64,000 nucleotides of DNA from an uncultured Methanosarcinaceae archaeon (GTDB lineage: Archaea; Halobacteriota; Methanosarcinia; Methanosarcinales; Methanosarcinaceae): the NCBI GenBank assembly GCA_963727895.1, contig CAVSHT010000004.1, positions 427,473 to 491,472 of the forward strand. Reading direction: 5' to 3'. The notes below the pieces were generated by a model, which had not been told where the DNA came from, made no database searches, and saw only the letters and a list, made by a program, of their open reading frames with translations. The translations under genes and the position numbers were made by a program. Positions 36,893-41,569 of the stretch are shown one piece after another; within the stretch, counting starts at the first letter, position 1; each line of letters opens with the position of its first letter.

Positions 36893-37294
36893 ATGATCGT
36901 TGTGGCAGATAATGATTTTACATCCAAAGACAACGAATTTAAGATAGGAGAGGTTGAATATGAAATGGTAGAGCTTTTAAGAAGGCTGAATATTAACAGG
37001 CCAGTTGCTCTCACCCTTGCTTGCCTCTCCAAAGGAGAGGAAATTTCTTCCCAATGTATCGAAATGGTATCAGGGTTAAGGCAGCCAGAAGTTAGCATTG
37101 CAATGAGGTATCTTCTAGAAAATGATTGGATAGACATGAGGGAAGAAAAGAAAAATCAGGGCAAAGGTCGACCAGTTAAATTGTATAAATTAACGGTGCA
37201 GATGGAAACAATCATTAACTCAATAGAAGAAGACATAATGGCCGAAAGCAAAACTGTGCTTCAGAACATAGAGCGCTTAAAAAATATTTCCTGA
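36893..37294 (+). CDS. Winged-HTH transcriptional regulator, divergent from hdrA (probable MreC-like)
   Basis: IE..SGLRQPEVS.AM, GKGRPVKLY; position resembles the Methanosarcina regulators next to hdrA1C1B1 (from memory). Confidence 0.8.
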   Translation: MIVVADNDFTSKDNEFKIGEVEYEMVELLRRLNINRPVALTLACLSKGEEISSQCIEMVSGLRQPEVSIAMRYLLENDWIDMREEKKNQGKGRPVKLYKLTVQMETIINSIEEDIMAESKTVLQNIERLKNIS

Positions 37295-38095
37295 TATTGA
37301 CTTAAATTCCAGAATCATCAAGAAATAATCCAAATATCCTATTATAAAATATGAGTCTGGATTAATAACTTTAGATAAAACTTAAAAAATAATATATAAG
37401 AACTAGAACTTTTAATAGAATTGTAGTACTATTTTAAAAGTTATACGATCTCTTAATTCTATTCCTGACATCTCTTTTTTCATAGAATCAAAGTTTCAAA
37501 AAAGTCAAACTAAGAATATTTCAGGGACAGAATATATATTCAAAAATTATCGAAAAGAAACATCTCAATAGAGATAAAGAGTTCATCTCATAAACAGAAT
37601 AAACTTTTATAGTAATAAGGACCTAGAACTCTTTCATACAATCCATATAAGTTTAGAGATTTAAGGGTAGAAAATAATCACGTTTATCCCAGGTCATCCA
37701 GAAGATGAAATATTTCTTATTTCAATGTTAAATATTAGACTTACTTTATGATCAAAATAATTCAACAACCCATAACATAGAAAGCACATGATACTTTAGA
37801 ATATAGTTCGAGTTTAAAGCAGCTTTTGAATTTCAAACAAACCTTAAATTGAGATACGGACTTATTCGTGGAGATTGTTTTAAAAAATAGTTTAAATGTA
37901 GTGATTATAAAACTTTAAAAGAATAAACTTTACAAATTTGATTATAAACGATAAACAGCATCATCTGAACTCTTTTTGAGTTAGCAAATCTCAAAATCAC
38001 TCAAAAACTTAGATATAAATCAACAAATATAAAAAATGATAGAATAAGTAAATATTTATATTAATCGACTCTATAATGGTCCTTTGGGTGATTAA

Positions 38096-38509
38096 ATGGT
38101 AGATGAAAGTGGTTCAATCATGGAACTTTCTGACACAAATGACCAGAGTCCTATAGTAATAGGATCAAATGAATACGAAATGATAGAATTACTTAGAAAA
38201 ATAAATGTCAGTAGACCAATTGCTCTTACACTTGCATGCCTTGCTAAAGGAAGAGAAATTTCATCTCAGAGTATTGAAATAATATCAGGATTAAGACAGC
38301 CTGAAGTCAGTGTTGCAATGCGGTATCTTCGAGAAAACAACTGGATAGATATCCGTGAAGAAAAAAAATCAAAAGGAAAAGGCAGGCCGATAAAGCTATA
38401 CAGGCTTACAGTCCCAATGGAATGCATCGTTAGCAAGATAGAAGAAGAGATAATAGCTGAAAGCAAAATTGTGCTTAGAAATATAGAACGTCTGAAACAC
38501 CTTGCCTAA
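38096..38509 (+). CDS. Winged-HTH regulator, paralog of the previous gene (probable MreD-like)
   Basis: Same motifs SGLRQPEVS, GKGRPIKLY. Confidence 0.8.
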   Translation: MVDESGSIMELSDTNDQSPIVIGSNEYEMIELLRKINVSRPIALTLACLAKGREISSQSIEIISGLRQPEVSVAMRYLRENNWIDIREEKKSKGKGRPIKLYRLTVPMECIVSKIEEEIIAESKIVLRNIERLKHLA

Positions 38510-38805
38510 ATTATTCATTAGAATTATATTTCAGGCATTGATACTTAAACATAGTTATATACTGTTAGAAAGTATATTTCTTCATGAACTGCCCAAAATG
38601 CAATAGTTCCAGTCACAAAAAATGGTATAGTTGATGGGCGTCAACGGTACAAATGCCATGATTGTGGATATAACTATACAGTATAGCTAAAATCAACTGC
38701 TTTTTCCGCTTCTGTAAAAAGACAGGCTTTACAACTCTATCTTGAAGGATTGGGCTTTCGCTCAATAGGAAGAGTTTAGCATGAAAGTACATGAGGAGAT
38801 TATCC

Positions 38806-40070
38806 TCACGTGCTCTCTTGATCCTTTTTCCCCATAATCGCAAATATTTCACTAATTATTTTAATCCGTTCATCAACCGAAAAAATCTCAGTCTCAATAA
38901 TCTTTCTCTTTTGGATTTCTCCCTTTTGATATCCGGTTTCATCTTCGTCCATCTCATCGTTTGTAATAAGATGCCATAGTATCGTTGCAATTTTCCTTGC
39001 TAAGGCAATAATTGCTTTTGCATGTCCAATCGACTTCTTTTTTCTGTTAAAAAACTCTTTTAACCTGCTATTCTTCTTTCTTGCTGCTGCTTGAGCAATC
39101 TGTGTCAGAATCCACCTTGCTACTTTTGATCCCCTCTTTGTGATTCTGCCGTTATAGTATTTAACTGCAGATTGATACACATTAGAAACTAGACCAAGCC
39201 AAGAAGCAAGCTTATTTCCAGAAGAAAAATCCTTAAAGTTGCCTATTTCAGCAAGTAAAATTGCCGCACCAAGTTCCCCTATACCTGGAACTGACATTAA
39301 AATCTCCATTTCTCGCTTATGATTTCGAGAAGCATAATTGAAAATTTCTGTTTCTAAAGCTTCGAGTTCATCATCAAGACTTTTTATGAGTTTCAGACAG
39401 ATCTGAAGTCTGAATGCAGCACTTTGAGAAATTTCTCGATCAAGAATTTCTCTTATCTGAGCAGCTTTTTTCCGAACATTTGGAGAGAGGCTTGCAATAA
39501 TCTGATCAACACTCTTACCTGAAGAGATTCCTAATAAGATCATTCTGCCATTCTTGCCAAAAACGTCTGTCAGCACATTATTCAGGTGTAGCATTTCAGA
39601 TGCAAGAATTGAATTTCAGATGCAAGAATTGAGTGAGCTTTATTTTTTAAATCTGTTCTTTTTTGTACAAGTGTTAACCGAAGTCGAACATATGATCTAA
39701 AATCTATATGATCCTTTGGAAAAACTCTTGATGGCTGAATCATATTATTAAGTGCAAGTTGTGCAATGACTTCTGAGTCAATCTTATCTGTTTTTGTATG
39801 GGTAAATACCTTCATATCTCGCGCATTTCCAACTATCACAGTTAGATGCTTTACCAATGAATCATGAATCGGAACCCAAAAGTAGCTGGTTGATTCATAT
39901 GCAACAACATCACATTTTTCTGATATTACCCAATTTTTAAGGGCTAAAATTCCTTCATCATCTCTGTTGAAACGTTGCTGTTGTTTTTCACCAGATCTAC
40001 TGAAAATTGTAGCAATGAAAAAGAGTTTGTGAATGTCTAAACCACAAGCTTTGTTTATGACTTAAATCAA
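38806..40070 (-). pseudogene. IS110 DEDD recombinase/transposase, inactivated
   Basis: GLDIH, YEST, KTDKIDS, SVPGIG, QSA, ITKRGS, ALARK; TAA at codon 3 and a 20-bp duplication at 39593-39632. Confidence 0.9.
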
Positions 40071-40089
40071 ATTAGATCACCAAATTTAT

Positions 40090-40223
40090 TTGGGCAGTGG
40101 AATTGCCTAAAAGGCCAATTTAGCATCCGTGATCAAAGTCACACTTGAGCCTTCGATGGCAATTCACTGATTAGTTTTAGAACGGTTTTGAAAAACCAAA
40201 ATCAAGACAACCTTACTGCCCAA
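40090..40223 (-). ncRNA. Candidate IS110 bridge RNA (structured non-coding leader)
   Basis: Nested stems with loops containing TTTAGCAT (element end junction) and AGTTTTAG (target site); see findings. Confidence 0.5.
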
Positions 40224-40832
40224 GGTAATGAGGGCTTAATAGTCAAAAAAAAGAACGGAGAGTACTTTCATTAGTTGTGCTTGTTATTCGAAGAATATCA
40301 TGTGCGTTTTAGGGGTAAGTCATGTTTCTGTCCAAAAATGGATAAAGAAATTTGGTCAGGAGTTAGAGAACCTAAAAAGTGAAAGTGAGATATCTATTGT
40401 TGAAATGGATGAAATGCACACTTACATCGGTAACAAAAAAAATATTGCTGGATCTAGATTGCTGTTGATAGAGTTGGGAAAAAGTTCATCAACTGCTCTT
40501 TTGGCAGCAGAGGAACGGAAACTGGAAAACTACTCTGGGAAAAAGTGAAGAAAAAAGAGATTGGAGAAGTGATGACAGATCACTGGAGGGCATATGCAGA
40601 GTTTCTTCCAGAAAAGAGTCATACTCAATCAAAAGCAGAAACATTTACAGTTGAGGGATATAACAGCATATTGAGGTATTTTCTGGCAAGGTTGAGAAGA
40701 AAGACAAAGTGTTATACAAAAAGTCTTGAAATGCTAAAGTACTCGGTTATTATATTGATGAAATAAAGAAATAAAGAACTAGATATATTTAAGTAACAAT
40801 GTCATATTTCATAAAGAACTTTATTTTTTAGA

Positions 40833-40922
40833 ATGAACCTATCATAAAGTCCATTCAAATATCCTATTGATGACTTAAATATGAGATTCAAAACTCAAAT
40901 TTTGAGTTTTGGATAGGTTCAT
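40833..40922. mobile_element. MITE-like element related to 27907-28036
   Basis: IRs ATGAACCTATC / GATAGGTTCAT, 90 bp. Confidence 0.45.
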
Positions 40923-40927
40923 AGCTT

Positions 40928-41569
40928 TTACAGCATTATAACGGCTTTTACAACAATATATCCAAATATTATGAAGCCTGCTATGTATAATGCATCTGTT
41001 TCTGTGTTTGGCATTTCATAATATTCACATTGAATAGATTTAGAGTTTGTTTTATTCAATTCGTTTTTTAACCAGTATAAAGTCAAAATAACTACTACTC
41101 CAAATCCTAAAATTTCAGGAACATAACTTTCCGATAACTGAAAATTAAATGACCTATTGAACAGTACTAATAAATATTCTAATCCCGTACGATCCACAGA
41201 ATTTTTGGGAAAACTCCATCCTAAAAGAGGCCAGAATAAAGTTCGAGGATTTCCCCACATCTGGTCTTCCATAAGATGGAAAAATGAGCCTGAAGCAAGA
41301 GAAAGAATTCTAATGTCCCTTCTTTTATCATACAAGTGCAAACCGATAAACAAAAGAGAAATAGATAATATTAGAGTGTGACCTATAATGCGTCCATTTG
41401 CCAGAGTCGAAGAAAAAATAACCATACCTAGAGGTTTGTCTAGAATGTCAGGAAATAGGGCTCCAAGGACAAGATACTTAGGATCTATGATAGTTTTTAT
41501 TTGATGGGTAAAGACACAAAGAACAATAAATACTCCAAGTGTAATACCAATATGTCCAAACAGAAGCAT
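40928..41569 (-). CDS. Membrane-bound metal-dependent hydrolase (YdjM-like)
   Basis: GH.G, GALFPDILDKP, GHTL, HLMED, LFWPL. Confidence 0.85.
   Translation of the reverse strand: MLLFGHIGITLGVFIVLCVFTHQIKTIIDPKYLVLGALFPDILDKPLGMVIFSSTLANGRIIGHTLILSISLLFIGLHLYDKRRDIRILSLASGSFFHLMEDQMWGNPRTLFWPLLGWSFPKNSVDRTGLEYLLVLFNRSFNFQLSESYVPEILGFGVVVILTLYWLKNELNKTNSKSIQCEYYEMPNTETDALYIAGFIIFGYIVVKAVIML

Follow-up and report, generated by a model that had tools for sequence, protein, structure and literature searches.

The minus strand of positions 40071-40230 in the window, the whole 64,000-nucleotide stretch of an uncultured Methanosarcinaceae genome that was analyzed in the present study, is very probably the guide ('bridge') RNA of a methanogen IS110-family element. 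It folds into a three-way junction that is conserved in four methanogen genera, and three segments in its two internal loops change together with the DNA that they match, namely, both flanks of the insertion site and one end of the element itself. Bridge RNAs have been known since 2024. In the available passages of the paper that described them, the bridge RNA of IS110 elements carries a target loop and a donor loop; one was predicted for 85.7% of the ISfinder elements in the IS110 group, and the structures were diverse (PMC11208160). An initial annotation of this DNA had proposed an RNA-guided recombinase system in a methanogen; this proposal is now supported by the conserved fold, three guide-DNA covariations, and an IS110-family enzyme, with recombination itself being predicted from sequence.

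The source genome (3.67 Mb in 19 contigs, 63% A+T) is represented by an 84%-complete assembly and contains 20 full-length copies of the IS110 element, which are 93-100% identical, in addition to fragments. The ends of the element were set using 24 left and 24 right junctions of these same-genome copies together with 223 uninterrupted IS1-type target sites in the genome. The element, its gene, and its surroundings are laid out as follows:

38778..40309, minus strand: IS110-family insertion sequence, 1532 bp including one copy of the shared core
38774-38777: second core copy, GTTT on the plus strand, in the flank of the IS110 element
38806..40070, minus strand: broken coding sequence of the DEDD/Ser recombinase, with a TTG start at 40070-40068
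40262..40271: 10-bp inverted repeat in a sub-terminal position, left copy (ATGAAAGTAC as read on the transposase strand), 38 bp from the left end
38781-38790: partner of this repeat, 3 bp from the right end
38584..38777, plus strand: left part of an IS1-family element, interrupted by the IS110 element
40310-40766: right part of the IS1-family element, which resumes after the IS110 insertion

Read on the transposase strand, the junctions are ...CCTA-AAAC-GCACATG... (left) and ...TTTCATGCT-AAA(N)... (right); therefore, the circle junction must be CATGCT-AAAC-GCACATG. The circle junction (TGTGC-GTTT-AGCATG on the plus strand) and insertion site (GAAGAGTTTTAGGGG) that had been predicted in the initial annotation both fit this junction arithmetic. 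No match to the circle junction was present in the assembly. AAA(C) stands at both junctions in all clear copies, and the same short core occurs in the donor and target. The base following AAA at the right junction varies with the target (C, A, or T), which limits the shared core to the A-run and assigns the C of AAAC to the left end of the element. The sub-terminal repeat covaries between the two ends in relatives (ATGAAAGTCC/GGACTTTCAT and ATGAAAGTGC/GCACTTTCAT). A small hairpin is also found at the extreme left end of the element (40283-40298; AUAUUC UUC GAAUAA on the transposase strand), and Methanoregula elements have GACCU GA AGGUC at the same position.

Regarding the recombinase, the sister copy L018 matched Pfam PF01548 (DEDD_Tnp_IS110; 2.4e-17) and PF02371 (Transposase_20; 3.6e-26), and an intact relative of 411 aa (L033) matched NCBIfam NF033542, 'IS110 family RNA-guided transposase', with 263 bits (cut-off, 140). 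In this sister copy and intact relative, the recombinase has a DEDD (RuvC-like) domain and, after it, a Tnp domain with the catalytic Ser, while the window's own gene is broken. The alignment of L033 with IS621 (PDB 8wt6) was distant (E 4.8e-9) and limited to the Tnp domain, in which the Ser of YxS was aligned. The coding sequence starts with TTG or ATG in relatives. The enzyme of the window copy had been considered dead, and an inspection of its open reading frames and a read-through of sister copies confirmed this: codon 3 is TAA (40064-40062), and a tandem duplication of 20 bp (39592-39611 and 39612-39631) puts the gene out of frame. The frameshifting duplication is found in 16 of the 20 full-length copies and the codon-3 TAA in five, and, therefore, copies with a dead gene have multiplied, either by mobilization in trans or by conversion between copies. 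Three of the four duplication-free copies have a stop in the read-through, and the fourth (93% identity) is devoid of any open reading frame longer than 222 aa; no intact recombinase copy was seen in the 84%-complete assembly.

The RNA that lies upstream of this gene has the following parts, all of which are on the minus strand and are written as RNA from its 5' side:

40086..40226: bridge RNA core of 141 nt, a three-way junction closed by P1 in both the MFE and centroid structures
40215..40223: P1 5' strand, UUGGGCAGU, partner of 40090-40098
40208..40212: P2 5' strand, GGUUG, partner of 40169-40173 (UAAUC); this helix closes the target-binding loop
40198..40207: right-target guide, UCUUGAUUUU, on the 5' side of the target-binding loop
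40184..40197: P3 hairpin, GGUUUU UC AAAACC, at the tip of the target arm
40174..40183: left-target guide, GUUCUAAAAC, on the 3' side of the target-binding loop, with four variable bases and AAAC
40100..40165: donor arm, consisting of P4 (40100-07/40158-65), P5 (40110-15/40148-53), an internal loop, and the P6 tip (40129-32/40139-42)
40144..40148: 5' side of the donor-binding loop, UCAAG, the expected place of the right-donor guide
40116..40127: left-donor guide, GAUGCUAAAUUG, on the 3' side of the donor-binding loop
40090..40098: P1 3' strand, ACUGCCCAA, partner of 40215-40223
40076..40093: alternative hairpin P7, CCAAA UAAA UUUGG, formed by the P1 3' strand with the start of GGUGAU

P1 encloses a target arm (P2, an internal loop, and P3) and a donor arm (P4/P5, an internal loop, and P6). 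When read against the sequence, the stems of the initial annotation were found exactly where it had placed them, i.e., TTGGGCAGT (40090-98) with ACTGCCCAA (40215-23), GAATTGCC (40100-07) with GGCAATTC (40158-65), AAGGC (40111-15) with GCCTT (40149-53), the GTGA/TCAC tip (40129-32/40139-42), and the GGTTTT/AAAACC hairpin (40184-97), as were its two 8-nt loop matches, TTTAGCAT (40119-26) and AGTTTTAG (40173-80). It had overlooked helix P2 (40208-12/40169-73) and left the right-target guide at 40198-40207 unplaced. The order that it had given for the loops on the transposase strand, target and then donor, is the order in which both loops were mapped.

That short A+T-rich matches would arise by chance in an A+T-rich genome had been a concern, and it draws some support from the 63% A+T content of this genome and from the whole 253-nt leader, which folds unremarkably on its own (z -1.66; 11 of 200 shuffles were as good). 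The 141-nt core has a z of -3.63, which was reached by none of 200 shuffles, and its MFE and centroid structures are both the three-way junction. This core fold, the comparative pairing, and the permutation tests of the guides, both of which are presented below, contradict a chance origin, the probability of which we consider to be next to nil. In a scan of 38000-41500 against Rfam 15, which may hold no bridge-RNA model, no match to the leader was obtained at E <= 10; the scan yielded just two matches, both at a chance level (E 0.43 and 2.5).

Relatives from the genomes of the family, 13 of 61 of which had a match, were supplemented by a scan of species genomes, in which 86 out of 127 candidate stretches passed confirmation, with 80 loci being retained. 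These 80 loci belong to Methanosarcina, Methanolobus, Methanoregula, and Methanospirillum, with recombinase identities of 42-94%. RNAalifold on a plain MAFFT alignment of 22 leaders independently recovered P2-P6, and a covariance model built from 22 sequences, to which P1 was added, gave 100 matches at E <= 0.001 over 100 sources, located upstream of recombinases in four methanogen genera. The comparison of homologous leaders by RNAalifold, which the initial annotation had suggested, thus revealed a fold that is conserved in these four genera. The window copy scored 180.7 bits (40071-40230; E 1.1e-46), and its RNA accordingly scores as intact.

Across 62 distinct rows of the alignment used for pair counts (A3), 91.8% of the cells pair, versus 28.4-48.1% after a shift of the partners by 1-3 columns, 21 of the 38 pairs are altered on both sides, and none of 500 shuffles reached any of the measures; the pair counts lean towards the structure because this alignment was fitted to the covariance model, and, since the sequences are related, the pairing figures and the permutation counts of the guide tests are not true probabilities. 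Both-side changes occur in seven of the nine pairs of P1 (e.g., GGACAG/CUGUCC and GAGCAG/CUGCUC) and in three of the five pairs of P3, while 95.4% of the cells are paired in P2 and 93.5-97.1% in the helices of the donor arm (P4-P6). P6 passes through a compensatory series from GUGA/UCAC to GCGA/UCGC and GUGU/ACAC. Furthermore, G-U outnumbers every other pair at three positions (in 58, 45, and 58 of approximately 61 rows) and is frequent at a fourth. These pairs would be A-C mismatches if the other strand were the RNA, which places it on the transposase strand. A structured RNA on this strand, upstream of the gene, had been proposed from the single copy in the window, and the 100 model matches, pairing statistics, and G-U strand signal now argue for it.

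The same pairs bear on an explanation at the level of DNA, in which the matches act as double-stranded motifs bound by the recombinase, similar to sub-terminal repeats, and RNA is uninvolved. The covariation of the 10-bp sub-terminal inverted repeat between the element ends would be in keeping with this explanation, as would the failure to find a right-donor guide (see below) and the fact that transcription of the leader is only predicted. On the other hand, the helices keep pairing via G-U pairs, which exist on one strand only, and via compensatory changes, a pattern that points to an RNA under selection. RNA guidance has been demonstrated for this enzyme family, and the target motifs lie in single-stranded loops framed by helices, as they do in the bridge RNAs described in the available passages of PMC11208160 and PMC11208158. 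We consider the DNA-level explanation to be very unlikely and retain a guide RNA as the preferred reading.

Some of the collected loci are of interest in their own right. The locus of Methanosarcina sp. KYL-1 (L085) has approximately 100 nt inserted in the P3 loop of an otherwise conserved RNA, with a model score of 91.8 bits. Six elements with 70-84% protein identity are located on contigs of 1.5-3.7 kb in genomes labeled Cloacimonadales, Oricola, Ignavibacteriaceae, Bacteroidales, Clostridiales, and Cloacimonadota (L073, L078, L080, L081, L084, and L133); mis-binned methanogen contigs are a more likely source for these elements than transfer to bacteria.

The relationship between the loops and DNA was examined at each model match after locating the left junction as AAA-N, four bases, and ATG at 60-115 nt upstream, and the right end as TTTCAT followed by three bases and AA. 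Fifteen of the 100 rows without a recognizable left junction and one guide string shorter than 10 nt were left out, as were, from the right-side tests, rows with a contig that stopped before the right end. Permutation tests were performed by shuffling guides among distinct guide strings ('families'). The left-target guide has the sequence of the left flank and core: identity over five positions was 0.775 versus 0.499 when permuted (0 of 5000; 28 families, 78 distinct targets), with values of 0.89, 0.80, 0.67, and 0.55 for the four bases that precede AAAC and a background level further out. Examples of a loop and its flank are UUCCAAAAC/TTCCAAAAC and UUGUCAAAC/TTGUCAAAC (as DNA, TTGTCAAAC). The loop CAGAAAAC is accompanied by eleven different flanks, all of which end in (A/T/C)AGAAAAC, and GAAAAAAAC by 20 Methanoregula flanks that end in an A-run.

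The right-target guide complements the A-run and the first 3-4 bases of the right flank. Complementarity over the first five bases after the A-run was 0.515 versus 0.358 when permuted (0 of 5000; 28 families, 66 targets), and this signal peaks at base 2 (0.64 versus 0.28), is modest beyond it, and fades after base 4; predicted and observed flanks are exemplified by AAAATAAGTA/AAAATAAGTG and AAAATCTGCA/AAAATCGGCA. Regarding the donor loop, the sequence of the left-donor guide (AUGCUAAA) is that of the right element end and the core, and identity at its three variable bases was 0.868 versus 0.526 when permuted (0 of 5000; 12 families), with the matched states GCT, GCC, GCA, GTT, GAC, and AGG. 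The covariation of loops with insertion-site flanks that the initial annotation had proposed to look for was thus found for both sides of the target loop, and its two 8-nt matches, taken as target and donor guides, both covary with DNA across many independent elements. Its own caveat that these matches are short and A+T-rich is removed by the conservation and covariation tests.

Three of the four expected guides were found, and the number of programmable bases is small (approximately 4 plus 3-4 around the A-run). Therefore, the earlier description of a target- and a donor-binding loop holds for both guides of the target loop and for the left guide of the donor loop, but not for the right-donor guide. 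The 5' side of the donor loop did not covary with the four variable bases of the left end. The mutual information of all model columns with left-end positions was dominated by a lineage signal, and neither this analysis nor an inspection of 44 distinct combinations disclosed a right-donor guide. In a scan of the whole leader for 4-5-mer complements with G-U allowed, no column fit more than five of 18 left-end types. These searches would miss a guide that is confined to the invariant core. We also considered pairing between the left end and AUGUG..UUU, which overlaps P6, and rejected it, since the covariation of P6 is with its own partner strand rather than the left end.

The fit between a guide and its site is not perfect in every copy. 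The window copy matches its own left flank at seven of eight bases and its right flank partially, five elements (L109, L064, L086, L134, and L087) disagree with the flanks at which they are located, and two subfamilies are combined in the chimeric L020. Since the guide RNA of any copy could act on others, agreement between a copy and its own site is not required.

The leader is predicted to be transcribed as a minus-strand RNA. A possible TATA box, a T-rich/TATTAA stretch, lies 23-30 nt upstream of P1 and is not conserved in Methanoregula. Contigs that are 85-99% alike, from four RNA libraries of relatives (90-95% alike), cover the leader and coding sequence, with DNA possibly being present in these libraries, and some of them stop at 40231, where relatives diverge; since these contigs come without a strand, start, or end, they were not used as evidence of expression. 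A search of sequencing runs for the element listed 22 runs, none of which had half of the query words.

A Shine-Dalgarno-like GGUGAU (40076-40081) lies between the RNA core and TTG start. At least three bases of the P1 3' strand pair downstream, forming P7, in 33 of 40 distinct tails, with the compensatory changes CCCAU/AUGGG, CUGCU/AGCAG, and CUCACA/UGUGAG; P7 is absent in Methanoregula and Methanospirillum. Based on these sequence features, P7 may be a switch between guide folding and recombinase translation. The position of the structure directly upstream of GGUGAU and the start codon, together with P7, makes some regulatory role plausible alongside guiding. It would also suit a leader that is solely a cis-acting 5' untranslated region, controlling the translation or stability of the recombinase mRNA, in which any likeness to the element end and target is incidental. 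This explanation offers no account of why three loop segments change together with the flanks and the element end (12-28 families, 0 of 5000 each), and we regard it as highly improbable. A guide RNA, possibly with an added regulatory function, is the reading that we continue to favor.

Considering the genomic context, the IS110 target site in the window lies within the helix-turn-helix (HTH)-coding segment of an IS1-family element, and most of the IS110 insertions in this genome are in such an element. The IS1 identity was obtained from an uninterrupted copy (Pfam DDE_Tnp_IS1, E 5.9e-15), and matches to an N-terminal Zn-ribbon and HTH were all under the Pfam cut-offs. The 223 uninterrupted IS1-type target sites comprise 136 with CCTAAAACTCTT, 46 with CCTAAAAATCGT, and 41 others. 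The best-matching target in the genome is CCTAAAAATCG, in the HTH-coding part of this IS1-family element of approximately 220 copies; this 11-mer occurs 48 times versus 2.6 times expected from base composition. Most of the sister copies carry the guides CCUAAAAC and CGAUUUU, which fit this IS1 variant exactly. Just upstream of the IS1-type element in the window are two paralogous small open reading frames, 36893-37294 and 38096-38509 (133 and 137 aa), which are very similar to each other.

The flanks of eight of the 20 full-length copies are discordant: four have an IS1-type left flank and a non-IS1 right flank, and four the reverse (L007, L010, L011, and L014 versus L013, L016, L018, and L020). 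The equal numbers of the two types suggest reciprocal exchanges between copies, i.e., inversions or translocations.

Many features of the methanogen element are shared with IS621, as described in the available passages of PMC11208160 and PMC11208158. In both, a recombinase with DEDD and Tnp(Ser) domains is accompanied by a guide RNA that is specified by the left end, on the same strand as the gene and upstream of it; the target loop of this RNA precedes the donor loop, and each is an internal loop with a stem-loop as its cap. In each loop, one guide reads as the top strand does; in the target loop, the other guide complements the top strand. The guides overlap on a core that is common to the donor and target. 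In IS621, handshake guides follow the 3'-side guides (PMC11208158); the methanogen RNA has an invariant base at this place (C in the target loop, U in the donor loop) that matches the other DNA partner and may have a corresponding role.

There are also clear differences. In the IS621 target loop, a stem is followed by the left-target guide (LTG; A50-U58), a stem-loop, and the right-target guide (RTG; G77-G80), and the donor loop likewise has the left guide (LDG) before the right guide (RDG) (PMC11208158, in the passages available). LTG is thus on the 5' side and RTG on the 3' side in IS621, whereas the left guides of the methanogen RNA are on the 3' sides of the loops; therefore, as seen from the RNA, the methanogen element is flipped relative to IS621. 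The arms of the methanogen RNA are closed by P1 into a three-way junction, in contrast to the tandem stem-loops with a linker of IS621, the core is an A-run (AAA) instead of CT, the guides are shorter with the right-donor guide not being detected, and the element has a 10-bp sub-terminal inverted repeat. The proteins are distantly related, as noted above for the Tnp domain.

A sub-terminal inverted repeat is instead reminiscent of the IS1111 group, in which such repeats measure 7-17 bp and the RNA is in the right end, downstream of the gene (PMC11208160, in the passages available). The methanogen element shares with this group an IS110-family recombinase and its 10-bp repeat, a comparison made at the level of element features, but its RNA is upstream of the gene. 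Beyond insertion sequences, Nop5/box C/D systems have been proposed to be relatives of IS110 recombinases (10.1101/2024.06.21.599552, in the part available). By description only, a box C/D sRNA with Nop5 is similarly a structured archaeal RNA with two bulged guide regions and a protein with a Nop/Tnp-like domain; it guides RNA methylation and not DNA recombination, unlike the proposed role of the methanogen RNA.

In terms of earlier records, 662 archaeal IS110 recombinases have been reported (10.1101/2024.06.21.599552), and 32,190 bridge RNAs under 86 models, many of which deviate from IS621, have been mined from bacterial and archaeal intergenic DNA (10.64898/2026.10.21.760802), according to the passages available from these two sources. 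Since bridge RNAs are being mined at this scale, the methanogen family may already be catalogued without a name in bridge-RNA sets, such as Supplementary Table 5 and Data 2 of Durrant or the bioRxiv supplements. The passages of papers on bridge RNAs, IS110, and archaea that were available describe no archaeal bridge RNA, and a search of the text of the literature, as distinct from figures and supplements, found no paper that names a bridge RNA and Methanosarcina together.

Based on the covariations and the likeness to IS621, the following mechanism may be envisaged. The 3' side of the target loop (NNNN-AAAC), which has the sequence of the left flank and core, would pair with the target's bottom strand, while the 5' side (NNN-UUUU) complements the top strand across the core and right flank. 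In the donor loop, the sequence of the element's right end and core is found on the 3' side (AUGNNNAAA), which would engage the donor. Strand exchange by the DEDD/Ser recombinase would follow inside the shared A-run, between the circle junction CATGCT-AAA-CGCACATG on one side and NNNN-AAA(A)-TNN targets on the other. The window copy has an intact RNA and cannot make recombinase; therefore, it would move, or supply its guide RNA, in trans only.

These elements may be combined into a joint reading, which is possible, yet on balance doubtful as a whole. The polarity of the bridge RNA would be flipped relative to the recombinase gene, such that the strand exchanged first would be opposite to that in IS621, and both loops would be held in one closed three-way junction. 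Only three guides would be encoded by the RNA, with the left end being recognized in another manner, e.g., through the 10-bp sub-terminal repeat or the terminal hairpin. P1 would compete with a hairpin over the ribosome-binding site and thereby couple guide folding to recombinase translation, and dead copies that keep their RNA would multiply via an enzyme made elsewhere.

Taken together, these results describe, in concrete terms and with comparative support, a bridge RNA of an archaeal IS110 lineage, for which the guides, core, ends, and natural targets have been mapped. The inverted guide order, closed junction, and missing right-donor guide bear on the generality of the mechanism described for IS621, and archaeal members matter for the proposed descent of Nop5/box C/D systems from IS110 recombinases. 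Methanosarcina species are genetically tractable; therefore, a native RNA-guided recombinase of this type would be a candidate genome-writing tool for methanogens.
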